From assembly GCA_000934665.2 (NCBI GenBank), contig KZ539003.1, positions 1 to 36,863 on the forward strand: a stretch of 36,863 bases of DNA, given 5' to 3'. Position numbers and translations under genes: made by a program. The notes beneath the pieces are model-generated. The model was not told where the DNA came from and searched no databases. It saw only the letters and a list, made by a program, of their open reading frames with translations. Of the stretch, positions 8,850 to 35,768 are shown piece by piece (position 1 is the first letter of the stretch; each line of letters begins with the position of its first letter). This DNA comes from Catajapyx aquilonaris (lineage: Eukaryota).

Positions 8850-10552
8850 CCTTACCCAAATCCCTTGGTTTACGCGCACCCCCCAGTTCACGAGTTTTTG
8901 CGGCGTAACTTGCATGAAAACTGGGTCAGTGATCATTTCTGCATAAAAAAAACGTGCGTTAACATGTCAGAAAGGAAATGCATGTGCCAATGGTTTGATT
9001 GGGTCCAAACACAAGGGTCACAATGGGTTCATATGATGGGCCACCCGATACACAGGGGAAGTAAAATTACGCGCATCCCCCTAACACACGATATCAGCAC
9101 TGTGTGGCCATGTGCCATTGCAAGGAAACGTAACTCCCATGATCCTCAGCCCATCTTGGCTATAAAAGGCATGATAAATCGCTGCCTATGACTCATCACA
9201 GCGAAGAACCATGGCGAGAAGAGCGTTGCCTGTTGCACTGAGAGAGATCATCATCAAAAGGCATCGGGATGGTGTTCCCCTTCGACAGATAGGCCGGGAA
9301 CTGTTGGTTCCAGAGTCTACAATACGCACGTTCCTAAAGCATTACAAGGCCACCGGAAAAGTTGAGCGGAAGAAAAGTCCAGGGCGACGAAAGTCGACAA
9401 CAGCACGAGAAGACCGGATGCTGCTCTGGATTGTTAGGAAAAAGAGACCAGGCTCTTTTTCGGATGCTGCAGCATTGTGGCAGGAAAGCCTGGGGCGTCC
9501 AATTTCTACAAAAATAATCATTAAGAGGCTGAAAGACAAGGGGTACTGGACCTACAAGTCTCAGAGGAAACCACTCATCACTCGAGTCCAGCAGAAATGG
9601 CGCTACCAATGGGCCCGGGACCATCTACACTGGACTACCAATGACTGGAAGAAGGTTATTTGGTCTGACGGATCACCATTTGAGGTGCTGTATGGAAACA
9701 TCGGTCGTAGAGTCATTCGGCAGAAGGGTGAAGGACTCTGAGGTGACTGCGTAAAAAAGGAGTGCAAGTTTCCTCTGAAGGTGGGTTTGTTAATCCTAAG
9801 TTATACCCGCAGTACGTCAACATCTTTATGCGCCCATTACAGGTGCAAATATGGGGATGTTTCCGACATCGTGCAGTGGGCAACATGGTCACGTACAGCA
9901 ATACCATCAATGCATGTCGGTACCAGGCCATCCTTCAGGATCATGTTCTGCCCTCCATTCCACGACTGATGTGCAGAAGCAAGTACAATTTCCAGCAGGA
10001 TGGCGCAACGGCGCATACTTCGCACACAACTAAGGCCTGGCTGCAGGGTCATAGGATCGAGGTTCTGGACTGGCCAGCCAATTCGCCAGACCTGAACCCT
10101 ATTGAGGATTTGTGGAAGGTTCTGAAGAAAATGGTCAGGCGGCGCAAGCCCAGGAACAAGGAGCAGTTGACGAGGGCCTTGGAGGAACAGTGGTGCAAAA
10201 TTCCTGCTGAGAAGTGCAGAGAACTGGTGGAAACCATGCCCCTGCATGTGAGGGACGTGTGTGCTGCTCGAGGAGGGCCGACCAAATGGCGACTTTTCGG
10301 GCATGTGCAGGATGTGCGTAATATTACTTCCCCTGTGTATTGGGTGCCTATCATGAACCCATTGTGACCCTGGACCCAATAAAACTATCGGCACATGCAT
10401 TTCCTTCCTGACATTTTTTTACACACGTTTTACACACGTTACGCACGTTTTTTACACAGAAATTATCACTGACCCATAGTTTTCATACGAGTTACGCCGC
10501 AAAAACTCGCGAACTGGGGGGTGCGCGCGTAAACCAAGGGATTTGGGTAAGG
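8850..10552 (+). mobile_element. Full-length Tc1-family (DD34E) transposon with ~230-bp TIRs
   Basis: TA|CCTTACCCAAATCCCTTGGTTTACGCGCAC ... GTGCGCGCGTAAACCAAGGGATTTGGGTAAGG|TA. TIR similarity extends to ~9075 and from ~10315. TATAAAA at ~9161 precedes the ATG. Confidence 0.93.
9211..10292 (+). pseudogene. Tc1 transposase with a 62-nt intron and a premature stop
   Basis: N-terminal HTH (RQIGRELLVPESTIR, SPGRRK), WSD, WGCF, QQDGA...SPDLNPIE (D-34-E spacing counted), GGPTKW end. In-frame TGA at 9739-9741. GT..AG intron 9781-9842 joins the two ORF-track frames. Confidence 0.85.
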
Positions 10553-11101
10553 TACATCCATGGAAAAATATTTTAGCCATGTGTTGATGAGCAGGAGGCG
10601 ACATCTTGAAACTGCCTTACTTCTTTTCCGCACTACCGTATCACAATTCATAAATTAGTATCAGGGCTGTACCATAGTGATTTACAATAATTTCTTCTTT
10701 TTTTGCCAAAACTTTAGGGCCCTTACAGGTTGGCCGATAGGCACACATTATTGACAGAATCCTCCTGGAGCCAAATACACTAGTGCCAATGGTGTGGCAG
10801 CCTCTCCAGGCCCTCCAAGAACCACAATTTGGAGGTGCAATGCACCCACTCCTGGACAACTGCTCTCAGTCAACAATGTTCTTCAAATGGCATCATGAAA
10901 GGGGTATTTTCATGTCTTGGGACAAGAAAGGAACTAACTGGAACCAGGCACTACCATCAGCAGCCCAGCATGCATGGCAACCCTCCATAGTTTGTGGCAC
11001 ACCATCCAGAAAGAATGGCCAGGGGAAGGTGTGCTCTTGCACCACGACATGTGTGGCCCAATGGGAGCCAGGAAATGACAGCTGCCATTGCCAAGTGTGG
11101 G

Positions 11102-16644: not shown

Positions 16645-16653
16645 TATATAAAA
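16645..16653 (+). promoter_or_regulatory. TATA box of LPMO paralog 1
   Basis: TATATAAAA ~55 nt upstream of the ATG at 16703. Confidence 0.55.
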
Positions 16654-16702: not shown

Positions 16703-17555
16703 ATGTCTGCTCTAAAATTTCTCCTTCCTTGTGCCCTCCTGATAGTAGGAGCCCTAGGCCATGGGAGAATGATGTTTCCACCTGCAAGAAATTCCATGTG
16801 GCGATTGGGATTCGACACACCTGTTAACTATGATGACTGCGGACTAAATTGTGGTGGTATTGACGTAAGTCTCCCTATACTATTGCAATTTAAGCATACC
16901 GTATAAGCATACTGTTCTGTTCAAAGGTTCAATGGAAACAAAATGACGGCAAATGTGGTGAATGTGGAGACGCTTATAACCTGCCTCGACCACGAGAAAA
17001 TGAAGACGGAGGAAAGTATGGAACTGGACTTATTGGCAACAAATACACCAAGGGCTCCGTGCTGGTGGCTGCCATTGACATTATCAGAAACCACAAAGGT
17101 TGGTTCGAATTCCGCATTTGCCCCAACAATGACGTAAAGAAGCCAGTCGAGCAGTCTTGTCTGGACCAGCATATTCTCCCAATTGTTGGCGCAACTGACT
17201 CTCCAACTCGCTTTCATCTGGAGGCACCATTCCCTGATGACCACTGGTACAATATCAGCCTTCAGCTTCCACCCGATCTCACCTGCACTCAGTGTGTCTT
17301 CCAGTGGTACTACAGAGCAGGTAACGTACTTGTTCCAAATGTTGAGTTTTTACACCATTGCATTGCTGTCACATACTCACTGGTCAATGGTGTTATGGTA
17401 ATGAGTGCATTTTATACCTTATTGCACATGTTAATATTGGTTCTTTAATTTTCTCTTCAGGCAACAATTGGGGTATCTGTCCCAATGGCACCGGCGCATT
17501 AGGTTGTGGACCACAGGAATCCATTGTCAATTGTGCCGACATTGGCATCTATTAA
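16703..17555 (+). CDS. Secreted AA15-type lytic polysaccharide monooxygenase (LPMO/chitin-binding type-4 fold), paralog 1, 216 aa
   Basis: Exons 16703-16864, 16927-17320, 17461-17555 (all GT-AG; 651 nt). Signal peptide MSALKFLLPCALLIVGALG, then His1 HGRMMFPPARNSMWRLGF; GKCGECGD; RNHKGWFEFRIC; CTQCVFQWYY; NNWGICPNG..GCGPQESIVNCADI. AATAAA at 17572. Confidence 0.93.
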
Positions 17556-18456
17556 GTCCAACTGTCTTGCTAATAAATACCGCAAAACTTGTAAATGTGT
17601 CACATAGCTAATGTTACTAAAATACTGCAAGCCTGCAGTTGCTGTTTTTCAGCAGGTGATAGTTCTGTTGTTGTACACAGCCTTGGAAACACGTAATCGA
17701 TCCGAATGGCTTGTGATATACACAAATGTTGCTCTCTGTAGGCCTTTCTCGATACTAATAAAATATTATGTCAATAAGATTTGAGGTCTTTATTTACATT
17801 GAGGTCTAATGTGAAGGGTTACATAATTATAACAAATTCCATTGAAGACAAATAAAGTTCAAGATGAAGATTAGTACAAGATGTAGGCTATATGTGATAA
17901 CGACATATTGTAATGTACTCTACACGAACGTATAATAAAAATTACACAGGTGCAGCACTAATTGGTGAATATAAGTTAATACTAAATTAACTGCACTCAG
18001 CATTGTAAATTATTTTCTGGTTGACTCTCCTGACGGGCATTGTAGTGATGCAAGAAAACTTCATTATTGAAGAGACCGAAGTGTTTTTGTGAAGTCACAC
18101 GGACATTTTCGAACTGAAAGTATACAAAGAGAATGAGCATGTAATCTTGATGCACTGAAATTCTTTACGCTTATAATGTTTGCTTTGTAATGCGCATACC
18201 AATCGAACACTGGTGTATTTGCATCTGGAAAAAAGAGCCGTACCTTATGAGAGTGCAGCAATCAACATGCACTCTAACAATAATTGAATCAGCTCGCCAT
18301 AAAATTTATTTATTCATACTTATATTAGCATTTATCGTTTTTATTTGTTACCTTTTACCTCTTTGCAGGAACTTTAAATCATTATACATTGCCCAAGTCA
18401 CCAGTTCTAAAGATGGATAGGGAGACAAGTTATACGGATTGTTTACCCCAGTAACC

Positions 18457-19365
18457 AGGGCCGGAGAGAGGTCTAGCCGGGCCCCAGGGACGACAAAGAT
18501 TCGGGTCCCCTTCGCTCGAATACAGACAGTGACACTTTCAAATTTTCGTTCGAAATATTGCTGTCCGCAAGAAAAAGGCATTGGGATTTTGAGGCACGAA
18601 AAAACCCAGAAATGAGCACGAAAAACCCATCAAATAGGCACTTAAATAGGCACGAAAAAACCTCAAATAGGCACCAAAAATTTTACTGGATGATAATATT
18701 ACAGAAAATAAAAAAGCTGGAACAATTTTATAGGCATTAAGTGTAAATATAAGGTCACAAACCAGAGAAAAACCCGAACAACAACAATAAACTGACAGGA
18801 AATTGCAAAACTTAGGCGAAAGACACAAAGTGCAAGCAAGTATGACTTGCGCTGGCTCTACCTCTTGTAGCCAGTTTCCACTTGCACAATATGTTGCCAA
18901 ATATTTTTCTGAATTTTCCTCTGTTCGGAACAATCAGAGGAAAACTTATTTGGCATACACGTCACAGCAACATGATTCGTAATATTACTTCTGAACAGTT
19001 TTTGTCCTTTCAGGAGCACAAAAAATACTCCGCAAAAAAACCAAACATGCATAATATGAATAAATAGGCCCAAAAAGTCCCGAAATTTGGAATTTAAAAA
19101 AAAGTCCCGTAATTGCTTCCAAAAGTTCAAAAACTATCATAAAAAAGGCCAAATAGGTATGAAAAGTCACAAAAAGCCAGAATATGCAAAATTGTACAAA
19201 ATAGTTCCCAAAACCACGAAATTGGCCATTTTAAAACGATAAAACCTACATTTTCCACATCCTGCACTTATGAAATGAATAGATCTCTACACAAAACCAT
19301 CACAACTGTTAAGGAACTAAATAGGCATTTGCCTAAAAATTCGGACATTAGCTAATAATAATCAG
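18457..19365. repeat. Degenerate transposon-derived sequence with AAATAGGC repeats
   Basis: CAGGGCCGG hAT-like start at 18457. A-rich tract with repeated AAATAGGCA(C) ending AAATAGGCATTTGCCTAAAAATTCGG. No matching second TIR found. Confidence 0.35.
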
Positions 19366-19482
19366 TAATAGGCTGTATTATTTATTGTCACCGCAAATAC
19401 TATACAGGGTGTATATTACAGCAGATGGCTATAGGCAGCGATAAGCCGGTAACTTTTGAAAAATTTGTAGTACCGGTATGTA

Positions 19483-19963
19483 CAGTAAAACTTCTATAAG
19501 CCAAATCTCCATGGGACCTGAAAAAACCTCGAGTTATAGAATATTCGAGTTAGAGAATTATGGATATTCTAAAGCACATAACTCAATAAGGAAGCCCATA
19601 TATACCTTTATATCCAGCGACGAAAGGTGTTCAAAACTTAAAAATAACTGTCACTATCACACTTACAATGTTCCTCGTTGCTTTGTTGTTAAAAAAAACT
19701 CCGTTATGGGCATTTGCCTACTCTTAGATTCAAGGATTCAATAGTCCCAATCGAGTCAAACACTTAACTTTCGGTGCGTCTGGTAGACGGAGATCAGGAA
19801 ATCGAGCCTTTCTGTACACGTGGCCTACTCTCGACCCTTCGGTTGGGAAATGAGAAAATTTTCCGTACTCGCCAACATGAACTTCGACTTAGGGAGACTG
19901 AAAATGCATTGATATCCCATCGTAAGGCCCTGCCTGCACTTCCAGTTATGGAGAACTTCGAGT

Positions 19964-20046
<83 letters not shown>

Positions 20047-20459
20047 TCATACCCCGTTATCAGCCTATCGGCTCTTTAGGGGGGAAGTTTTTGTTTTGCC
20101 TCGTGGAACTCTTTGCTTTCGTTTTACTGTGCTCTTTGGGATAGGATAGGGACGGAAGGAAGCGGCTGTGGCCTATTACTTACGGAAACAACTCCGGATT
20201 TTTCCTGGAAGGACCGTGGGAAACCACAGAAAACCACGGTCAGAGTTGCCGGCCCCGGGACTTGATCCCAGGACCTCCCGATTAGCAGTAGGACACCATA
20301 TCCCCTCCTCCAAACTGTTTCGGTACTTCGAGTTATAGAAATACGAGTTAGGGAAGTTTATTTCCTATTATTTTACATTGTGACCAACCAAGCTCATCAT
20401 TTTCGTCTACTTATAAAGAAGTTCGACTTAGGGAAGTTCGACTTATAGAAGTTTTACTG
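19483..20459. mobile_element. pogo/Tigger-type MITE containing a SINE
   Basis: TA|CAGTAAAACTTCTATAAG ... CTTATAGAAGTTTTACTG|TA, with repeated TTCGA(G/C)TTA motifs. Confidence 0.85.
19968..20324 (-). mobile_element. tRNA-derived SINE family A with (TTA)n tail
   Basis: Reverse complement of 20666-20959. Long (TAA)n at 19968-20045. Flanking duplication ACTTCGAGTTATA (19955-19967, 20325-20337). Confidence 0.85.
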
Positions 20460-20665
20460 TATAGCCGAAATTACGGAAAATTGGTCCAGGATGGCAAAAA
20501 TGTTGAAATGCAGCACATGAAATACTTCAGTGACTTGATCTTCTCATGATTCCTGTATGCACTGATGCACATACGACATACCCATGGGCACTACTGGGTT
20601 AACTCAACTTTTCTGGCCTTCCTCTGGGCGAATTCGTCAATGATGTCGTCGAAATTCAATTTTCG

Positions 20666-20959
20666 ACCGAAGCAGTTTGGAGGAGGGGATATGGTGTCCG
20701 ACTGCTAATCGGGAGGTCCTGGGATCAAATGCAGGGGCCGGCAACTCTGACCGTGGTTTTATGTGGTTTCCCACCGTCCTTCCAGGAAAATTCCGGAGTT
20801 GCTTCCGTAATTAATAGGCCACAGCCGCTTCCTTCCGTCCCTATCCTATCCCAAAGAGCACAGTAAAATGAAAAGCAAAGAGTTCCAGGCAAAACAAACT
20901 TCCCCCCTAAATAGCCGATGGCTGATAACGGGGTATGAATTATTATTATTATTATTATT
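20666..20959 (+). mobile_element. tRNA-derived SINE family A with (TTA)n tail
   Basis: 14-bp TSD AAATTCAATTTTCG (20652-20665, 20960-20973). Degenerate tRNA-like head, body GTGGTTTCCCAC..TCCAGGAAAA..AGGCCACAGCCGCTTCCTTCC, tail ...TAACGGGGTATGA(ATT)n. Confidence 0.88.
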
Positions 20960-21805
20960 AAATTCAATTTTCGGGCAAGAGTGGCATTAAGGCATAACAT
21001 TCCCAAGGAATTCAGTCACTGCTGCCCCATTGACGATCGTGTCTCTCTTTTTATTCTGGCTATAGCACTGAAGGATCGTTCGGCGCCGGAAACTGACATT
21101 GGGAGGGTACAGAATATAGGAAATTCGTCTTTTATTAATATTACCCACTTCCTCACATCCCCTTGAACTGGTGTATTAAACTGTATTATGCATAATAATT
21201 ATGAGAGTAAGTTCTAACTTATAAGAAATCACACGTAGGATACGAACTACAATTATTTTTACTGTAACTGTAAACAACTGGAAGAGAAACAAAGCCATAA
21301 ATTGGCTTTAGATGTTAGAATAAAATTGGCATTAGCGAAATTTGCCATAAGTAAAAGGACCCGAATATACTTGGAGCATATACTGAGTATCATTTATTGT
21401 TGAGCTGGTCATTTACTGCACGTCTATAAGACATCGATATATTATTTTTTTGTAAAATACAGAGAGCTTGAAAAATATGACACCAGCGTGATAGCACGGG
21501 TAGAACGTGCTATTCTGGATCGACAAGTCATATCTTGGGGCATCCTATCGCTTTTTCTGGTTACTTTGACCTGCAAGCGGCCTTTTTTAGCAAATGATAT
21601 CAGCTTTTGGTTGTATAACCGGTACCTGCGGACCAATCCAGTTTTCTGTATAGACTTATCTAAAATATTCGTCCAGCGTGCGGTAGCATAATATTAAGCA
21701 AGACAGAAGACACGACATTAAGAGTTAAATATGGCCAATAACTCGCTAATTGTCCGTTTGAAGCATTAAAATTTCTCCTGATCTCAACTTAATCAATCAA
21801 CTATA

Positions 21806-22230
21806 CAGGGTGTATCTGAACTCAGTGCCCCGACGTATATGACTTCCTTCCTAGCCACCAGAGGACCGATTTAAGTATAGGAGTCATTATGTCTGGCCGC
21901 CGCATTACTGAGATAATTGGCCGCAAACATGTAGTACAAAATATCCTGTCGGTTAGGCCACCCATCGAACCCTCCCCCAGTCAGAAGGCTCTGGAAGGTC
22001 TGGGGGCGGGACTTTGTTGGTTTGTTGCCCACAGGTGGTAAGGCCTCTTTGGCTAGTTACACCAGAAAATTCTATTTAAAAGTCAGAAGGAGCGATTAGG
22101 CAAAAATCGCTAAAGAGCGTATCTCAGTAATGAGGCTGCCCAGACATAATGACTCCTCTACATAAGTTGATCCTCTGGTGGCTAGGAAGGCAGTCACATA
22201 CGTCGGGGCACTGAGTTCAGATACACCCTG
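21806..22230. mobile_element. CAGGGTG MITE, copy 1 (upstream of LPMO paralog 2)
   Basis: ~90-bp TIRs CAGGGTGTATCTGAACTCAGTGCCCCGACG... Near-identical to 24353-24776. Confidence 0.9.
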
Positions 22231-22559
22231 CTATAGTTGAAAAGTACTGTATCTGCAAGATAGGTGTATATAGGAGGCAGATAACTTAGACACGTAATTG
22301 CATCTTATTTTCTTCAGGCGCAATCTTTCTCCTAGAGTACCTTTCAATTTGCTCAGTAAAACCAGGGCAGGTCAAACCTTTAATCACAACACTATAATCA
22401 TATTCCATATCACATTTCTATCTCAGATGATCTTTTCAGGTGACATTGTTTTTCTCCTCTATTATCTGCACCAATTGCTGAGATGTGCAAAAGGGGGATA
22501 AAAACCCTCTATATGGAATGCCAACAAACATTCTGGTTTCATTTGCCAAAGGTGACAAG

Positions 22560-23331
22560 ATGAAACTCCTTCTCTTCATCGTTGCTACCTCTATGGTGGC
22601 TGTAGAAGTCAGCAGCCATGGATATATACTGGAACCACCAAGCAGGTCATCCATGTGGCGTGTGGGATACAAAACACCTATCAACTGGGATGATGATGGC
22701 CTGAACTGCGGCAATGTTCCGGTATTATAGCACAGCCCTTGGTATATGAAGACACGTTAATATAATTTTTGATATTCAGACAGAAGATGGGCATGGAAAG
22801 TGTGGCGAGTGTGGAGATCCCTGGGCTGACCCCCGACCCCGAGAAAATGAAGATGGAGGCAAGTATGGCCTTGGAATTATCACCAGGAACTACCAGAAAG
22901 GACAGGATATCAACATCACAATTCATTTGACCACTAATCATATGGGCTGGTTTGAATTCCGTCTCTGTCCCAACAATAACGTCAAGAAACCTGTGGAGCA
23001 ATCGTGCCTCGACCAAAATCTTTTGGAAATGGCTGATGGCTCTGGTACTCGTTTCCATCTCAAGAACAAGCATGAAGAGGAAAATGACTGGTTTTATTTC
23101 CAAATCAAGCTTCCGGCTGACCTCACCTGCACACAGTGTGTTCTTCAATGGCACTGGCAATGTGGTATGATATTATGCCATTTTTATATCGTGTCCTGCT
23201 CTGCAAAAATAACTAAATACTCTCTACCATTTACAGCAAACAGTTGGGGTATTTGTCCTGATGGTCATGGTGCTATGGGATGTGGTCCACAAGAAACCTT
23301 CCGCAACTGCGTCGATGTTGCCATCCAGTAA
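22560..23331 (+). CDS. Secreted AA15-type LPMO, paralog 2, 213 aa
   Basis: Exons 22560-22721, 22780-23164, 23237-23331 (642 nt). Signal MKLLLFIVATSMVAVEVSS, then HGYILEPPSRSSMWRVGY; LTTNHMGWFEFRLC; ANSWGICPDG..GCGPQETFRNCVDVAIQ. AATAAA at 23366. Confidence 0.92.
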
Positions 23332-24102
23332 TACTCTTCTTGCAGTCTGTAAACCACGTCGATTTAATAAACTTCATATTTTTGCTCCACACATTTGCAT
23401 TCCAATCATTTTACAAGGTGAATTAGAGCATATGATTGTCTGTGTTATCTTGTTTCCTTGTTTTAAGAAGAAATCATATCGCCTTACTTGGGTGATAACA
23501 CATCATGCGCAGGAGTGAAGTTAATACATCGTGTTCCAAGACAGGTGTCAATTTTAGTTGAAAATTTTTCCGCCCTAAGTAGCTTCTTTCTAAGTAGTGA
23601 CTTTTAACCAGTATTTTTAGAAGTTACCATGAGTATTAGCTGATATTATTATATTAAAATTAACAATCAATTCATTCTATACGTTTAAGTGTAAGTATAA
23701 GTTGCAATGAAGTTCCGATTGGGATGGCTCATCAGCATGGGAACAGTGGGCATGAAACATCGATTATATTGAACGTAAGTTTTAGATGCTAATATCAGCT
23801 TGACTCCTGAAAGTTCTTTCTTACATGATAGATCAATAGAACCTCCTGAAGTTAACCTAATATTAGCAGATAATTTTTGATATTTGCTCAGAAAAATCGA
23901 TCCAAAGTGAATTTTTCAAAATAAGCAGAACAGGGAGAAAAGTAATTGCAAACTGTAATGGAATTGTAATAAGTTGTATAATGAAAACTGGGGAAGGTTT
24001 TATCTGATGATAAGCGTTATGTTTGTTGACTTATAACTCCAATTTTGCTTATAGGTGCGTGGTGGATAATAACTATATCCAGAACAAGTCAGTGGTTGAT
24101 CA

Positions 24103-24339
24103 TCTATATAAAAAAGCCGCTTGTGATCTGTCTGTCCGTCTGTCTGTCCGCCTGGAACGCCAACCGTCATTTGTCTGCCATCTGTGGTCCGCCTCCTACA
24201 CCTCCAACCTCTCCCGTCCTTCGTACCCGGCCTTCCGCTGTAATAATATTGAGATTCTTAATTACAAGTATTTTTTTTTACTTGTCCTTTTCAGCTTGTT
24301 TTCCATTCATTTCTTCCCAACGCCGGGTATCGCAGCTAG
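24103..24339 (+). mobile_element. Non-autonomous Helitron
   Basis: A|TCTATATAAAA 5' end, (CTGTCCGT/CTGT) microsatellite-like tract, 3' CCCAACGCCGGGTATCGCAGCTAG|T. Inserted between A and T with no TSD. Confidence 0.7.
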
Positions 24340-24352
24340 TACAGTTGTTATA

Positions 24353-24776
24353 CAGGGTGTATATGAACTCAGTGCCCCGATGTATATGACTGCCTTCCTA
24401 GCCACCAGAGGATCGATTTAAGTATAGGAGTCATTATGTCTGGCCGCCGCATTACAGAGATAATTGGCCGCAAACATGTAGTACAAAATATCCTGTCGGT
24501 TAGGCCACCCATCGAACCCTCCCCCAGTCAGAAGGCTCTGGAAGGTCTGGGGGCGGGACTTTGTTGGTTTGTTGCCCACAGGTGGTAAGGCCTCTTTGGC
24601 TAGTTACACCAGAAAATTCTATTTAAAAGTCAGAAGGAGCGATTAGGCAAAAATCGCTAAAGAGTGTATCTCAGTAATGAGGCTGCCCAGACATATGACT
24701 CCTATACTTAAATCGATCCTGTGGTGGCTAGGAAGGCAGTCATATACGTCGGGGCACTGAGTTCAGATACACCCTG
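24353..24776. mobile_element. CAGGGTG MITE, copy 2 (downstream of LPMO paralog 2)
   Basis: TA|CAGGGTGTAT...ATACACCCTG|TA. Same orientation and near-identical interior to 21806-22230. Confidence 0.9.
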
Positions 24777-25638
24777 TATATTGTTGGAAACAATATTCCA
24801 AACATTCACTGACAAGGATCAATCAATTGTTCAGGGTTTAATATATGATTGTATATTGCACAGCATAGCAGTACCTGTAGTGATCTTCAAGTTTCCAATG
24901 AAATGATGTTAATATAAAATACTCTGATTAAGAAGGAGACCTGTGCAATTCATATAATATTAAACGTTTCTCACAAAACGAGTCTAACAGCATGATTTTA
25001 TGGTAACAAAGCAAAATGGTTATGCGTTTTTTTTCTTCAAAATCTGGAAAATTAGTTTATTACATTCAGTGAACGTATGGTCATTAGGGTGGAGTGAAAA
25101 AAGTCAATATTTTTTTTTCAGAAACGGGTACCCTTCAATGACTGTGTATGAGACCTAGTAACAATTCTGTAAAATATTTAATTTTTACGACGTCATCTTG
25201 AGTCTGCACATTTGGCTTAAAGTTTGAAATTTTTTGAAATTTTTGATTTTCTTACAAAAAATTTTAAAGTACTTGAAACAAAAAAAAAACCTGACGGATA
25301 GTCACTAAATAGTTGAACAAGGCCTGAAATATAGACAGGATTTTTTAAAACATTTTTAGGTTGTGGTTTCAGTCTGCACATGAGGCTTAAACTTATCCAA
25401 ATATTCGTAAATGTCTGATATTTTTAACGTTTTATAATTTCTGATGTCCTCTTTTAATGTTATCAAAACTTGTTTATAATAGCTTTCGTTATTCAACTTT
25501 GCATTGTGCAACTCTTCGCTAGTTCATATTAAACTACCCAGGACTCACCACGGGGAGGTGGTTGCACCTCGAGTCCCACCCATGCCCTCCCAACCACCCA
25601 ACCATGAGAGCATGTATTTACATCTTGAAGAAAAGTCT

Positions 25639-26430
25639 TCAACAGGTAAATTGTTTCTTTATGTCATATATTGGACGGATATTTCTATCAAGCATTCTAG
25701 TTTTGATTAAGCTTTCTCTTTTCTTTTGATCACAGACCAATTTTGAGGAAGCAGTGACTACTTTGACGGCTCTTTCTACCGCTTGAGTGTGTGATGGGAG
25801 TTCTAAAAGAGTGCACTCAGAAGCTATGTTTACACTCTCGGTTTCCAGTAAAACCTTAGTTTGCAAATCCTGATTTGTCAAATGACTTGTGAGAGTTGGT
25901 TCTGTCACTTCCACATAATTCCAAACAATCGTATCGACATACTCTGATGCTCCAAAATTTATTTTCGGGATTTCAAACCGTCTTAGTGGTTTACTTGCTT
26001 GTTCTCTAGATCGAGTCTTGATGATACGTCTTAAAGCCAGTTTCTTTATATGATCTCTCTTATCAACCAACATAGCTATGAGAATGTTTTCATGGTGAGC
26101 AAAGTATCCATTGTCTTGGATACATTTGTGTACAATTTTCCGATTTTTCTCAGATAGGTAAGTCCAACAACTCTTTATGGTTTCCCACAAGTTTTGAGCT
26201 CCATCATAAGCTTTTGGATTACACTTGATCCTGAACCAACTAGGTGCATAAACTTTCAAGATGAAGGTTGCCAACTCTTTTAATGTTTGCGATGGAGTTT
26301 TTGTAGCTACGTATAATCTTAAAATTCTATTAGCTATAGTCAACCATCTGGCATGGGAGAGCTTTCCTGGACTTGTTTTCTAATTCTGGAGATATTTTCC
26401 CACTCGAAGCAGCTGTACAATAATTGTACA
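25639..26430 (-). pseudogene. C-terminal part of a hAT-type transposase (5'-truncated)
   Basis: PGKLSHARWLTIANRILRLYV...KVYAPSWFRIK...HHENILIAMLVD...PSHTQAVERAVKVVTASS. No N-terminus; frameshift near 26375. Confidence 0.8.
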
Positions 26431-26901
26431 GCTCACCATGAAAACATTCTCATAGGTCATAGCTATATGTTGGTTGATAAGAGAGATCATATAAAGAAAC
26501 TGGCTTTAAGACGTATCATCAAGGCTCGATCTAGAGAACAAGCAAGTAAACCACTAAGACGGTTTGAAATCCCGAAAATAAATTTTGGAGCATCAGAGTA
26601 TGTCGATACGATTGTTTGGAATTATGTGGAAGTGACAGAACCAACTCTCACAAGTCATTTGACAAATCAGGATTTGCAAACTAAGGTTTTACTGGAAACC
26701 GAGAGTGTAAACATAGCTTCTGAGTGCACTCTTTTAGAACTCCCATCACACACTCAAGCGGTAGAAAGAGCCGTCAAAGTAGTCACTGCTTCCTCAAAAT
26801 TGGTCTGTGATCAAAAGAAAAGAGAAAGCTTAATCAAAACTAGAATGCTTGATAGAAATATCCGTCCAATATATGACACAAAGAAACAATTTACCTGTTG
26901 A
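26431..26901 (+). pseudogene. Inverted duplicate of the transposase C-terminus
   Basis: AHHENIL...KKQFTC is nearly identical to the 25639-26100 copy. Confidence 0.8.
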
Positions 26902-28497
26902 AGACTTTTCTTCAAGATGTAAATACATGCTCTCATGGTTGGGTGGTTGGGAGGGCATGGGTGGGACTCGAGGTGCAACTACCTCCCCGTGGTGAGTCCT
27001 GGGTAGTTTAATATGAACTAGCGAAGAGTTGCACAATGCAAAGTTGAATAACGAAAGCTATTATAAACAAGTTTTGATAACATTAAAAGAGGACATCAGA
27101 AATTATAAAACGTTAAAAATATCAGACATTTACGAATATGTGGATAAGTTTAAGCCTCATGTGCAGACTGAAACCACAACCTAAAAATGTTTTAAAAAAT
27201 CCTGTCTATATTTCAGGCCTTGTTCAACTATTTAGTGACTATCCGTCAGGTTTTTTTTTGTTTCAAGTACTTTAAAATGTTTTGTAAGAATATCAAATAT
27301 TTCAAAAAATTTTAAACTTTAAGCCAAATGTGCAGACTCAAGATGACGTCGTAAAAATTAAATATTTTACAGAATTGTTACTAGGTCTCATACACAGTCA
27401 TTGAAGTTTCTGAAAAAAAAATTGACTTTTTTCACTCCACCCTAATGGTCATGTTAGAGGCGAACAAACAAGTGTGACATTATGAAATAGCCTAACACAT
27501 CACTTGTGATAATAATTTTTTTCTTGCTGTGACATTATACAGTATTGGTGTCACATCCTTTTCTATATGCACTTCACAATCGTGTTGTGTTGAAAGATCT
27601 ATCTTCATCCTTATCTGAAAGACTTGTATGCTCTGATAGCCAACCATGTCACTTAATACTCGTACTTAAATAATAATTATTGCATTTCAAGCTAACAGCA
27701 AGAACAGAGAGAGAGAAGCCTGCTAGAATGATCTCCCTCCCACATGTATTCCGAAGGAAACGTTGGTGTCATTTTTTTGAAACAGTGTCGCAGTTATTTA
27801 CTTTACAATTTTAGTCTAATGTTAAAGACCCTTATTAATATTATCCTGAGATATTCGATTCCATTAGAGCCGTGGTGTACCGACATATGCTATGGTGCTT
27901 ATGTAAATCAGACATAGTGGACATGGCCCCTCTAACAGCAAGAATCGATTATAGTATGGACTTCTGACTCTGCTCAAGAGCAGTAATCTTTATTGGTGTA
28001 TAAAGAATGGATAGTTATAGGCTACGTTAAAATAGTTATAGGTGCTCTGGTGAAAATGTTAAAAATAAACCTAACCAAAAACAACGCACTAACTTATGAG
28101 CAGGCCTGTATGTGCTATTATTATGACATATGATTTATGAGTGAGATATTTAATTATCAGGTTACATTTTGGGAATATTTTTAATGCAATGAATGAACAA
28201 AGAATCTTAGTTAGTACACTACGCAGAGCAAATAAAAGGCTGTCAGGTTAATACAACAATATCTGCTGCCACTGATCCAGTTTCATGGTGGAAAACCTCT
28301 ATATTACCTCCATGGCTGATTGCGAATTCACAAATATTTCGGTACTGGGATGATCCAGTATTAAAAGATACGTACTCATATCGGGGGGGGGTTTTTTTGG
28401 GGGGGGGGGGGAAATTAATCANGTTAAGAATAGGATAATCACTTCTCATGGCCAGCCATTAATGATGATACAAAATACATAATTTGGCGATGCAACA

Positions 28498-28561
<64 letters not shown>
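28498..28561. repeat. (TTA)n microsatellite
   Basis: ~21 perfect units, 260 bp upstream of LPMO paralog 3. No SINE body recognised next to it. Confidence 0.95.
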
Positions 28562-28564
<3 letters not shown>

Positions 28565-28823
28565 GTCGTAGAAAAGTGGATAATCAAGTACAAATTCGCG
28601 TTCCATCTGATAGCCTTAATACTACTGATAAATCTTTCATTTCTCGGTTATGATCTAAATCCTAGATTGCAACATCACTCCATCACAAGCTTATAATTGA
28701 TAAGGTACACCAATATAAATGCAGCTTATTGTTTTGTAAACGTATTATTTCTTCTTGATCCACGTCTACACAAACTTCTTTCTATAGTATATCCAAGAAG
28801 TGAAATAAAAAACAGGCTTCATA

Positions 28824-29736
28824 ATGAGGCTTGTCTACCTACTTGCCTTGGTGACATGGATGGTAGCTGAAATTTCAGGTAAGGCCACTAGGCATAACTT
28901 ATTCCTGCAGTCATAATTACCACTGTAATTATTTTCAGGACACGGTTACATGGAGGACCCTCCCAATCGATCCTCCATGTGGCGATTTGGATACCATACA
29001 CCCGTTGACTATGATGACAATGGTCTCAACTGTGGTGGAGTCGGAGTAAGTATATGAAATATCTGGGAGTCCTGTTACTTCAAAGGTAACCCTGAAACCA
29101 ATGAGCATGCAAAAATTCCCTGCTGCAGTTACCGGTCAAATAACATGCTTCCAACTATAGTAGCCACAGTAACAAATACTGTATTTTTCACAGACACAGT
29201 GGCAGGTGAACAACGGGAAATGCGGCGAATGTGGCGACCCCTACAATGTGCCGCGTCCACGTCCAAATGAAGATGGAGGCAAATTTGGTCTGGGAATCAT
29301 CACCCGCAATTACACTCAGGGACAAGCGATCACTTTGAAGCTGCTGCTCACCAGGACCCACAAAGGATGGTTTGAATTCAGAATCTGTCCCAATAACAAC
29401 GTCAAAAAGCCAGTTGAGCAATCGTGCTTAGACAAATACCTTCTTCAATTGGCTGACGGATCTGGCTCCCGGTTCTACCCAACTGGTCAAAGCCCTGTTA
29501 CCTTTAACATCCCTCTTCAACTCCCACAAGGACTCACATGCAGCCAGTGTGTGATGCAGTGGCACTATCATACAGGTAATAATTCATTTAGAATCTCAAA
29601 ACTGGACATTCAACTTATTGTTGTCACTGTCTTTATTGTAGCCAACAGCTGGGGGAAATGTCCCAATGGCACCGAGGCTATGGGCTGTGGTCCACAAGAA
29701 ACCTTCCGCAACTGTGCCGATGTTGCAATCATGTAG
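28824..29736 (+). CDS. Secreted AA15-type LPMO, paralog 3, 212 aa
   Basis: Exons 28824-28878, 28939-29045, 29194-29575, 29642-29736 (639 nt). Signal MRLVYLLALVTWMVAEISG, then HGYMEDPPNRSSMWRFGY; LLTRTHKGWFEFRIC; ANSWGKCPNG..GCGPQETFRNCADVAIM. AATAAA at 29775. Confidence 0.93.
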
Positions 29737-32381
29737 ATCATTCTCCAAGATGTCATAATTATAGTTACAAGTCAAATAAACTGAAATGAAAGGGATATAA
29801 TGTTTAATTTCTAGATCTTAACATAGAAAATAGTAGTCTAATCCAAAACAAATTATGGAATCCAGTCCTTATCTGTTATTTTGTAATATCTGTTTGATTA
29901 TGATAGAAGGTTCGCAGAAGAATATGCGAAGCTCATGCGAAGCAATTATATTCTCTTTCCACAAGTTCCTATAAGGTACTGACTTTTCCTGAAATATGAT
30001 CGTAAATGTTTCAATTTGAACAAATCATGAATTAAAGTTTGTGAGTTTCTTTGTGGGTGTGTTTGTTCGTTAAATCCAGCGAAATGCCCCTACACAACCT
30101 TAAACTATCATACCGGGGGTTACTTTTGTCGAGGAATTTACCGCTGCATGTTTCAGCTTCCGAAAATGAGCCTAATTCCCTCAACACCCTTTATCTCCTC
30201 TCCTTAGTAGTTCGATAAAATAGTTTTTCCGACCAGCACTTTGACATGCTCTTATAGGCCCCTCAAACGAAAGATAGCATCTTAAAATAACTAACCTCCG
30301 CATAACATTGCAAAAGTGTATCATAAGCCTTTTGGAAATAAAATAAAATGGTACTATTTTGGATTTCTTGCCTACTATTCCTTCATCTCAAGACTTCTGG
30401 GCGTTAAAGCGAAATCGAGGTAGTTAATATTGGGCAAAGGTATGATGGTATTTTGGGCGAAGAAGTGCTACAAAGGAAATTGAACTTGTTTGAGTGTTCA
30501 AATGAATGTAGGTTTCAATACAAATGAAGTTGGAGCTCTGATAAAAATGGCAATTTATTACAATAAAATAAGTATCATGGATCATTTCTGAATATATCGC
30601 AGAATGTCCTGGTTCCCTGACAATTTTATGATATTGTATATTAATATTTTTCCATGAATATGAAATTGCTTTTAATGGGAGAAAAGGATAATTATTATAA
30701 TCATAATGGAAGATACAGAGGCATCTTGACTGAATATTATCTGTATTGCTCGAGGCTTACTTAAATCTGAATTTTATGAGGAATTTTATTTACAGTAGGA
30801 AGATTTTCCATTATTGACATGAATGACATCTCAGTGAATACATTATAAAGTTTCATTCACATGGGACATAGTGTTTAGCATACACTCCGCATCTATAGCA
30901 TAATTATTAAGAAATGCATTGGGGACAATATTATTGCAACATTATTATTACGGTATATTCTTGTTTCGTGCATTTTAAGACGAACTTGTCAGTCAGAACG
31001 AAGGCACGTGGTGACGTGAATGAAAAGGAGGATGGTGACACTAACTTCTCGATACGTTTTGTACTTTCAGCCCAAAAGATGGGGAAAGAGATGTTACGCG
31101 CTGTTTTTTCCTGAATGTAACTAGTATATTTCTCGTTTTTTTTTTAAATTGGTAAACTATAAAATGGAAGTTGCTACACTGTATACAGGGAGTATGTTCA
31201 GACAACTACTTTAGTGAATTCTTTGACATCAAAGGACCACTTTATATAAAAAATATGTAATTTGGTCTCGCTACCTCGATATTCAGATAAATACAGTAGT
31301 ATCAATAAAAAGTGCATTATACTACCTCCTATACGTTGCAGTTACAGCCTGTGACACTTTATTAGAAGTTTAATTGAAAGTTTTAAGGTAACACCCGTAA
31401 TATAAATATTCAAAAGGTAAGGTGGCGCAGGGGGAAGAATGAATTCCTGTCAGAATACTTTATAGCTTGTTTTTGGATGTCCAGGAGTTATATATGAATA
31501 ATTTTGCATCACTACGTATATAGTATAACGACGCAACTTGAATAATTATTATCAAGAGTAATAATTTGTTTCTCGAATGAAAAAGATTTCCCTACCGTAC
31601 GTCCAAACATGACATAATAATCATTGTACAGTACAATAATTATGTGGTTATAAAACTTTAAAACATATAACAAAGATTAATTTTGCCAGTCAATGTTAGC
31701 TATAGAGATAAAGTTTATACGCCACTTACGTCCATGTAAAGTTCACACAAGTCACACTGCTGAATGTGTAGGTTATTATCTACTGAGGAAAACTTGGGAA
31801 TATATAGTGTAATGTACAGGTGGTACCAAAATAAATATAACCCAATTCTTTCCTCTTATGTGCGAGAATTGACTTCAGGTAGTCCAGTACAATGACCTTT
31901 ACTCTGTGATAGGCATTATTTGTCATTGTGTAGGTCAAGAATGATAAGGCACTGTAAAAACATTCTACCTTCACGTGCAAAATATTGGTATTAATATTTC
32001 TTTGGAATAGGCTATTAATATCTCACCATTCATAACAATAAATAAATTGAATTAATAAGCGATTAGTAACCAATCACGTATTAATTCAATTGATTTATTG
32101 TTATACAGTACAACTGTTGTACTGTACTATAACTGCGTAGTTTAAGATGGATTCCAAAATATCCACCAGCAATCATCTAATCTGTCTCCTAGCTAAATCA
32201 CCTTCAGAAGGAGAATCGGTATTGCCAAACTCAAGTAGCAGCAGTACACAACAAGCTCCAACTCTATGATAGCTGGAGAGTTGTCTTACCTAATCTCTCA
32301 TTTTTATCACCTGCCAGTCATCTATTTAAGACCCTAAACTTGACACCTGTCCGAAGTGTTCTTGGCATCAGAGTGACAGCT

Positions 32382-33146
32382 ATGTATCTCCTGCCCGTCA
32401 TTGCGTGCGTGCTTCTGGCCGTCCAAGTGAATGGCCATGGCTACATGGTTGACCCTCCAAGCAGATCCTCTATGTGGCGATTCGGTTACCATACGCCAAT
32501 AAACTACGATGACAACCAGCTGTTCTGTGGAGGCTTTGATGTAGGTTATTGTTTCAATTTTATGACATCATTAAAACATGTTTGTTTTTCACAGAGGCAG
32601 TGGACCCAAAACAACGGCAAATGTGGAGAATGTGGCGATCCCTGGGATCTGCCCCGTCCCCGAGAAAATGAAGATGGTGGTACATACGGACTGGGAATCA
32701 TCACCAGAAATTATACCAAAGGCCAAAAAATTGACATATCTGTCGACCTGACGGCCAATCACAGAGGATTCTTCCAGTTCCGAATCTGCCCAAACAATGA
32801 CATCAAGAAGCCTGTGGAGCAATCCTGCCTGGACCAGCATCTGTTGGTGTTGGGTGACGGTTCCGGAACTAATTTGCCCATCATAAATGGCAACAAGGGA
32901 ATATGGAAAGGTCAATTTCAACTACCCAAGGATTTAACTTGCACTCAATGTGTAATGCAATGGTATTACCATACAAGTACGTATGAATGTTGATGTGCAT
33001 TGATATGTATATTAGCCTGTAATTAACACCATAATTTTTCATGATATGCAGATACTCACTGGGGTACCTGTCCAAATGGAACCCAGGCTGACGGATGTGG
33101 GCCGCAGGAGACTTTCATTAATTGCGCCGACGTCGCCATCTACTAA
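32382..33146 (+). CDS. Secreted AA15-type LPMO, paralog 4 (most canonical), 211 aa
   Basis: Exons 32382-32540, 32595-32976, 33052-33146 (636 nt). Signal MYLLPVIACVLLAVQVNG, then HGYMVDPPSRSSMWRFGY..NYDDNQLFCGGF; LTANHRGFFQFRIC; NTHWGTCPNG..GCGPQETFINCADVAIY. TATTTAA at ~32323; AATAAA at 33188. Confidence 0.94.
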
Positions 33147-34867: not shown

Positions 34868-35110
34868 ATATAATTATGGCTAACTCAACACACTCTCTGC
34901 AGTGGCATTTGTGGTCTTCTCGGCGCCTTTGAATGAAGCCTTTATTTGCAAATCATGACATGAGAGCACCAGGAAATACCATTTGGCCTTTCATGTGTAG
35001 ATGTGGTCACTTTGCCGGTTAACCAATGATGCATTAGGCCAATCATTTTAGGGGGGGAAAAGGGCCAAACATCAAATCAAATTGTAACAAAAGCAAAGAT
35101 TAGGTTTTTA

Positions 35111-35363
35111 GGACGACACGGTGGCGTAGTGGTTAGTGCAGCAGCCTTCCACCTCTAAGGTCCCGAGTTCGATCCCTTGTCGGATGGAGGATACTTATGT
35201 GGATAGAGCTTCAATGGGTTCTCTCCGTGTTCGGGTGGATTTTCTCGGGGTTCTCCCGTTTCCTCCCACTATCAAAATCCATCACAGCAAAGGCAATGAT
35301 TAAAGACGGTCAACGAAAAGATGACCCCCTAAGAGGCCCAAGGAGGCCTATCACGGGGTATCA

Positions 35364-35429
<66 letters not shown>
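35111..35429 (+). mobile_element. tRNA-derived SINE family B with V-domain-like core and (TTA)n tail
   Basis: A box TGGCGTAGTGG, B box GTTCGATCC, core GTTCTCTCCGTGTTCGGGTGGATTTTCTCGGGGTTCTCCCGTTTCCTCCCAC, tail CCCCCTAA...ACGGGGTATCA(ATT)n. Confidence 0.85.
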
Positions 35430-35768
35430 TTATATACCCCGTTATAGGGCCATAGGCCCTTATAGGGGAGTGGGACACCACCATTTTTTCGTTCGATTTT
35501 CTATATTTTTCTTCCAACTCCGGTGCAAGGACGAAAGGACATGGGGTAAGGATAGGGATTTATTGGGGAGGGAACATAGGTGCAAGTGCAATGTCAACAA
35601 ATGGGTCATGTGCTGTCCCCCAGGAGGGTAGGTTGCCAGACACCTCCTTGGTGCAGGTCAGAGACCCTCCTGACGCAGGTGAAAGGAAAGTTCCCCAGGC
35701 GGGGATCGAACCTGGGGCCTTTCACTCAGCAAGCCGTGACGTTACCATCACGGCCACCACACCTCCCC
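35430..35768 (-). mobile_element. tRNA-derived SINE family C
   Basis: Minus-strand head GGGGAGGTGTGGTGGCCGTGATGG (A box) ... GGTTCGATCCCC (B box). Tail CCCCTATAAGGGCCTATGGGCCCTATAACGGGGTAT. (TTA)n on both sides. Confidence 0.82.

Follow-up and report, generated by a model that had tools for sequence, protein, structure and literature searches.

A tandem array of four single-domain AA15 genes with variant copper-flanking residues in Catajapyx aquilonaris

The closest described counterparts of the locus considered here are insect lytic polysaccharide monooxygenases (LPMOs) of family AA15. In Thermobia domestica, TdAA15A (PDB 5MSZ; axial Tyr184, Ala89, Tyr24, Tyr166) is active on both cellulose and chitin, TdAA15B, with an axial Phe, acts on chitin only, and the Thermobia expansion typically carries the axial Tyr (PMC5823890). 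Insect AA15 proteins also include group I (Cys-rich tail, moulting), group II (membrane-anchored) and group III (LPMO15-3), and the group III proteins of Tribolium and Locusta (LmLPMO15-3) consist of the catalytic domain only, are multi-copy and have an axial Phe (PMC9156745). Tribolium has seven group III genes, expressed in the midgut only (PMC9156745), and seven single-domain AA15 genes bear the consecutive numbers TC016344–TC016350, a tandem layout being inferred from the numbers. Here we describe four tandem single-domain AA15 genes that occupy positions 16703–33146 of contig KZ539003.1 of the Catajapyx aquilonaris genome (GenBank assembly GCA_000934665.2; 285.6 Mb, 20,583 contigs); the window analysed is this entire contig (C2051) at its full length of 36,863 bp. 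The initial annotation of the window had treated such arrays as a Thermobia speciality, a view that the seven Tribolium genes overturn, and, judging from adjacent locus numbers among our protein matches (numbers only), a damselfly (three) and a dragonfly (two) may have comparable clusters. The array itself is therefore ordinary, one further case of a known pattern; what is unusual here is a pair of copper-flanking residues, Arg89 and Ile184, found in some of its members.

All four genes are co-oriented on the + strand, intact and spliceable through GT-AG introns, and their products are 54–64% identical to one another. Gene 1 (16703..17555; coding exons 16703–16864, 16927–17320 and 17461–17555) encodes 216 aa, gene 2 (22560..23331; 22560–22721, 22780–23164 and 23237–23331) 213 aa, gene 3 (28824..29736; 28824–28878, 28939–29045, 29194–29575 and 29642–29736) 212 aa and gene 4 (32382..33146; 32382–32540, 32595–32976 and 33052–33146) 211 aa. 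Two intron positions are common to all four: a phase 0 intron follows mature codon 35 (or the equivalent of the 36th codon) and a phase 1 intron precedes the final 30 codons, and gene 3 has an additional third intron within its signal peptide. The stop codon lies one or two residues beyond the catalytic domain in every case, so that each protein is a catalytic domain only. Thus the spliced models bear out the initial annotation as regards four co-oriented intact single-domain genes, two shared intron positions and the lack of any C-terminal tail, although the ‘identical’ 95-nt last coding exon that it reported is identical in length only, 60–75 of the 95 bases matching between genes. There is no N base within 200 nt of any array gene and no fifth AA15 copy or fragment in the window, the two matches outside the genes both having E > 0.5.

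By sequence tests of family, leader, brace and cysteines the array proteins are members of AA15. The main exon of each gene exceeds the Pfam LPMO_10 cut-off (E 1e-13 to 5e-9), so the match is not a chance one, and the search that the initial annotation had proposed as a check thus agrees with it. With the gene 3 and gene 4 stretches as queries the sole PDB sequence found at E ≤ 0.001 was TdAA15A (5MSZ; E 5e-40 to 3e-50), which is 46% identical to the gene 3 stretch. Each protein begins with an 18–19 aa hydrophobic leader, a predicted signal peptide by a hydropathy heuristic, which has small residues at −3 and −1 and ends directly before His1. The His1/His91 brace and Glu182 are present in all four, and ten Cys columns are common to them, to which genes 1 and 2 each add an eleventh, unshared Cys; leader, second brace His and ten shared Cys had all been read correctly at the outset. 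A partial model of gene 3, which omits the first 35 mature residues and includes an in-frame intron, had a predicted local distance difference test score (pLDDT) of 82 and matched 5MSZ best, at a template modelling (TM) score of 0.79, as expected of the LPMO beta-sandwich fold; a single-sequence fold of the gene 4 stretch reached a pLDDT of 41 and was set aside. The proteins would therefore be expected to be secreted and to bind copper, and in being single-domain, with predicted secretion, His1/His91, ten Cys and Glu182, they are like TdAA15A and TdAA15B.

To compare residues around the copper (positions in TdAA15A numbering) the array was aligned to 382 homologous domains from 374 proteins, taken from 120 of 126, 120 of 169 and 150 of 1,836 matches of three protein searches, a set that leans to close relatives. 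Gene 4 has a canonical chitin-type site (Ala89, Trp166, Glu182 and Phe184). Gene 3 has Arg89 (codon AGG, 29353..29355, +) together with Glu182 and Phe184, and gene 2 has Thr89, Phe184 and Trp24, is without Gln37-Trp38 and carries its extra Cys at 162. The site of gene 1 is atypical, with Arg89 (AGA, 17086..17088, +), Ile184 in place of the axial Tyr/Phe (ATT, 17523..17525, +, known from a single assembly copy) and an extra Cys27 (codon 16838–16840); it retains His1 (16760..16762, +), His91 (17092–17094), Glu182 (17517–17519), Tyr24, Trp166 and all ten Cys. The axial residue, usually but not invariably aromatic in AA15, is thus Phe in genes 2–4, Ile in gene 1 and Tyr in none, and Trp166 is found in all four. 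These substitutions in genes 1–3 were missed by the initial annotation.

Among the homologues (n = 378) position 89, whose residue covers the copper from the side of the substrate, is Ala in 299, Thr in 37, Ser in 24, Lys in five, Val in five, another residue in eight and Arg in none, so that the small residue that is usual there, though not invariable, is present in genes 4 (Ala) and 2 (Thr) and not in genes 1 and 3. By eye, Arg89 is also absent from the 64 sequences in the supplement of PMC5823890 (23 Thermobia, 19 Lepisma, five Drosophila, nine Tribolium, three Anopheles and five Hyalella), including every one of those from Thermobia and Lepisma; the Tribolium group III genes in that supplement are variable at the position, with Ala, Thr and, in one gene, Lys. 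Sequencing error was considered and rejected as the source of Arg89, because it is present in two genes by different codons and hence is not a single-base error. A literature search found no LPMO of any family, AA15 included, with Arg at the capping-Ala position, most subscription papers lying outside its coverage and supplements being limited to that of PMC5823890. Of 319 homologous domains two have Ile184, and both of these have lost His91; among the 251 whose brace is intact there is none. Accordingly, we could not find a match for the Arg89 site or the combined Arg89/Ile184 site in the sequences and literature compared, and both residues predict altered substrate choice or reactivity. Cys27 of gene 1 was seen in none of the 382 domains and the loss of Gln37-Trp38 in none of 252 near-full ones. 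We dropped the idea that the gene 2 loop deletion and the non-aromatic axial residue of gene 1 are unprecedented, as both have Thermobia precedents: in the PMC5823890 supplement two Thermobia proteins show a similar shortening, and one Thermobia and one Lepisma AA15 have an axial Thr. As separate observations, the unpaired Cys in genes 1 (Cys27) and 2 (mature residue 162) make a disulphide-linked dimer conceivable, and four homologues with an intact brace (P0008, P0015, P0021 and P0045; odonate and one unnamed single-domain AA15) have an axial Trp.

The four genes form a clade of their own, with Shimodaira–Hasegawa (SH) support of 0.99 in a 283-domain FastTree and 97.5/98 in a 41-domain IQ-TREE, which supports the lineage-specific AA15 expansion proposed initially. 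The C. aquilonaris genome holds at least eight AA15 genes, four in the array, a tandem pair on contig C314 and single genes on C2897 and C3056; two main-exon searches agreed on the same eight, a lower bound, and Pfam-profile and short last-exon searches recovered fewer loci. The C314 genes (locus L012, 3700–7500, − strand) each encode two 6-Cys repeats, the signature of moulting group I (PMC9156745, PMC12955341), of which a single gene is reported per insect (PMC9156745); their linker resembles published group I sequences by eye, and the assignment is by motif and by-eye comparison. The 6-Cys pattern occurs four times in C314 and is absent from the six frames of the window. The product of the C2897 gene carries a hydrophobic tail and is placed by the 41-domain tree among the membrane-anchored proteins of group II (94.1/99). 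This group II orthologue is at most 67–68% identical to any of the best 120 of 169 protein matches, and sequences from crustaceans, from insects and from chelicerates resemble it to about the same degree. The C3056 gene (locus L015, 3400–6900, − strand) encodes a long Tyr/His/Thr-rich linker with one Cys motif, and by eye is nearer to a Hyalella protein than to the insect proteins of the PMC5823890 supplement. One-to-one grouping of the array genes with the conserved AA15 clades, which the initial annotation had named as contrary to its proposal, is not seen, because they form their own clade and group I- and II-type genes lie elsewhere in the genome. Groups I and II have a catalytic domain with Phe184 and Trp166 as in the array, but the array proteins are without the Cys-rich tail of the one or the C-terminal membrane span of the other, and the array belongs neither to group I or II nor to the Tyr-type expansion of Zygentoma. 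Group III is alike in plan but differs in that Arg89 and Ile184 are absent from the Tribolium set, and its orthology to the array is weakly supported.

The gene plan of the array recurs in Thermobia. For a single Thermobia gut AA15 gene, GASN01030700.1, a genomic sequence has been given; by eye, its introns agree with the two shared ones of the array in position and phase, and its last coding exon is likewise 95 nt long (PMC5823890 supplement). Each of these positions also occurs singly in other AA15 genes of the C. aquilonaris genome, for which reason only their combination is informative, and the shared plan gives independent support for common descent of the array with gut-type genes. In the 283-domain tree TdAA15A falls in the sister group of the array (SH 0.89). 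Spliceosomal introns common with insect genes, together with top matches that are arthropod, led us to reject a horizontal or microbial origin, in keeping with the endogenous origin first proposed. From Thermobia the array differs in its axial Phe/Ile (typically Tyr there), in Trp166 (Tyr), in having four copies as against about twenty and in forming an independent clade.

Identity among the array genes is 0.75–0.82 at second and 0.36–0.44 at third codon positions, dN is 0.26–0.36, and dS is 1.9–3.0 where computable and otherwise saturated (by NG86 it is undefined for five of six gene pairs), giving a dN/dS ratio of about 0.12–0.17. The predominance of third-position differences noted initially thus stands, and by these sequence measures the duplications are old and purifying selection has retained all four copies. 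The spacers between the genes are filled with younger mobile elements. When site 89 is removed, the approximately unbiased (AU) test accepts 14 of the 15 possible rooted trees of the array, which are thus compatible with many orders of duplication and with either one or two origins of Arg89; a neat Ala–Thr–Arg series at position 89 in the 283-domain tree was dropped, its node support being 0.06. Gene 1 has the longest branch of the four in the 41-domain tree.

As to function, we put at about even the chance that the array encodes chitin-cleaving gut enzymes acting on food chitin or the peritrophic matrix, like insect group III. Axial Phe in three of the four proteins and Trp166 in all four is the pattern of group I enzymes (PMC9156745), and axial Phe is also that of chitin-only TdAA15B. 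Two termite AA15s are, at second hand, reported to act on chitin only, and a locust midgut enzyme, also at second hand, to remodel the peritrophic matrix; in ladybirds the gut LPMO group has been lost in the herbivorous tribe, and two of four gut LPMO genes are lower on pollen than on an insect diet (PMC11871716). By analogy with such enzymes, removal of the leader would expose His1, one copper would be bound in the His1/His91 brace, and the reduced enzyme with O2 or H2O2 would make C1 oxidative nicks in crystalline chitin, which would then be opened to GH18 chitinases. The likely site would be the gut lumen, where the target would be chitin of the food (cuticle of prey, walls of fungi), the peritrophic matrix or both. 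The canonical chitin-type site survives in gene 4, and genes 1–3 persist with changes in the second sphere, namely Arg89 (genes 1 and 3), Thr89 with a shorter loop (gene 2) and Ile184 (gene 1), which perhaps represent sub-functionalisation in substrate surface or redox behaviour. The genome has 57 GH18 matches on 14 contigs, which do not discriminate between readings.

Several points weigh against gut chitinolysis. The axial residue correlates with substrate but does not determine it, and in an AA10 the second-sphere residues alone did not fix specificity (PMC11137697). Second-sphere Arg is unfavourable for chitin in AA10 (PMC11137697), and if Arg89 reaches the AA10 Arg site chitin activity of genes 1 and 3 would be disfavoured. 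The trees contain no named Tribolium or Locusta group III reference, the bootstrap for array monophyly is only 82 in an 11-sequence tree, and the clade that joins the array with single-domain Artemia, Thermobia, odonate and other insect proteins in the 41-domain tree is weak (88.6/67) and is not recovered as one clade in the 283-domain tree. The genome also holds at least two GH9 cellulase genes, of which the one inspected has a leader and introns, and these would suit a Thermobia-like digestive cluster directed partly at plant cellulose without the axial Tyr, the Arg89-Glu182-Phe184 of gene 3 mimicking the Arg-Glu-Phe of AA10. We consider this unlikely. Besides the GH9 genes it draws on the three-exon plan with its 95-nt last exon, on the sister-group position of TdAA15A in one tree, on the non-aromatic axial residues and shortened loops also found in the Thermobia gut set, and on AA10s, where 49% of the 466 enzymes with cellulose or mixed activity have an Arg-Glu-Phe second sphere, whose Arg head group may be supplied from different backbone positions (PMC11137697). 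However, the cellulose-digesting expansion of Zygentoma has an axial Tyr and more than 20 isoforms, compared with Tyr in none of the four array proteins and at least eight AA15 genes in this genome. No GH45, GH16 or GH5 match was found in the genome, a weak negative since the GH45 control matched nowhere and intron-split genes can be missed. Arg89 is also not homologous to the Arg of ScAA10C, that Arg being residue 212 with the capping Ala142 kept. The comparison with Thermobia made by the initial annotation therefore gains support from the gene plan, but its cellulose-digesting side is weakened by an axial residue that is Phe or Ile and never Tyr and by only the at least eight AA15 and two GH9 genes, and a Thermobia-scale cellulose system is not indicated in this genome.

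Chitin-type residues would suit any chitin target, and the closest named matches are single-domain spider and horseshoe crab proteins, so the enzymes might act outside the gut in cuticle remodelling or defence (moulting fluid, glands, anti-fungal secretion). This too seems improbable, in that group I genes for the moulting role are present separately in two copies, the array proteins are without a Cys-rich tail and those single-domain AA15s of insects that have been tested to date belong to the midgut (PMC9156745). A possible, if doubtful, proposal concerns gene 1 and perhaps gene 3, which may be catalytically weakened or repurposed as a copper- or chitin-binding protein, or mainly as an oxidase supplying H2O2 to its neighbours; it is compatible with the chitin reading for genes 2 and 4. 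Gene 1 is changed on both copper faces, has a Cys27 unseen elsewhere and the longest branch, and shares Ile184 only with domains that have no His91, while axial substitutions tune redox behaviour and rates in ScLPMO10C (second-hand, PMC12884475). Yet gene 1 keeps its brace, Glu182, Tyr24, Trp166 and ten Cys, departs at four of 65 conserved columns compared with a median of three and shares in the low dN/dS where this is computable; moreover, the axial Thr of Thermobia and Lepisma and the Lys89 of Tribolium offer parallels, and Ile184 is one base from Phe in a single assembly copy. That the genes are unexpressed relics or an assembly artefact is very improbable indeed: the assembly is fragmented, but all four frames are open, with canonical splice sites and poly(A) signals, although their synonymous sites are saturated, and the copies, with no N close by, are too divergent for mis-collapsed alleles.

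Natural variation of the capping Ala or second sphere, as in the array, is known from the bacterial family AA10 in PlAA10 (Ala-to-Ile), SdLPMO10A (Ala-to-Gly) and ScAA10C (Arg-Glu-Phe); such variation tunes both the geometry of the copper and the choice of substrate. In these enzymes the geometry depends on whether Ala or Ile forms the cap, and those that naturally have Gly or Ile there are still active (PMC10107554, PMC12385910). As a long cationic chain cannot sit flat over the copper, the side chain of Arg89 should either turn towards the binding face or form a pair with Glu182. It is conceivable, but in our estimation quite unlikely, that genes 1 and 3 represent a new AA15 site type in which an Arg89-Glu182 pair rebuilds the AA10 Arg-Glu-Phe sphere from a different backbone position, giving an LPMO for non-chitin substrates (cellulose or an anionic glycan) independently of the Thermobia Tyr; the lost axial aromatic of gene 1 would have retuned its site still more. 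If this were true the array would provide, in an animal LPMO, a natural series of four steps by which residues of the second sphere could be related to substrate.

Other features of the window concern expression signals and neighbours. TATA-like boxes, by consensus match only, lie upstream of gene 1 (16645..16651, +) and gene 3 (28714–28720, +), and the same pattern finds none upstream of genes 2 and 4. Each gene is followed 17–42 nt after its stop codon by AATAAA on the + strand (17572..17577 for gene 1 and at 23366, 29775 and 33188 for genes 2, 3 and 4). The spacer between genes 2 and 3 contains a 2,360 bp fold-back DNA transposon (25085..27444) with an 8-bp target-site duplication, which is spacer only and not part of the enzyme system; we take it to be hAT-like. 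Its arms of ~1 kb are 96–97% complementary, and each has the end of a transposase-like frame with no Pfam match. Two near-identical (93–98%), TA-flanked miniature inverted-repeat elements of ~430 bp lie either side of gene 2 (21802–22230 and 24349–24780), and an inverted pair of repeats, SINE-like (short interspersed element) by eye and ending in AAT microsatellites, lies between genes 1 and 2 (20117–20324 and 20666–20873), and a comparable repeat with a tRNA-like head follows gene 4 (35100–35430). Further upstream are a Tc1/mariner element at ~8850–10560 (terminal inverted repeats, ends by eye), whose transposase is split in two frames (9178–9741 and 9747–10367; Pfam HTH_Tnp_Tc3_2, DDE_3), and an exon-sized BTB/POZ domain match on the − strand (2696–2920, E 7e-7), part of a neighbouring gene.

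What is understood of how AA15 enzymes discriminate between chitin and cellulose comes from few characterised members and from the axial Tyr/Phe correlate. The array offers a natural experiment, in that its four paralogs are alike in fold and gene plan and differ at position 89 (Ala, Thr or Arg) and at position 184 (Phe or Ile), and its four proteins could be used to probe the axial rule and to ask whether an LPMO works with a long cationic side chain over its copper.

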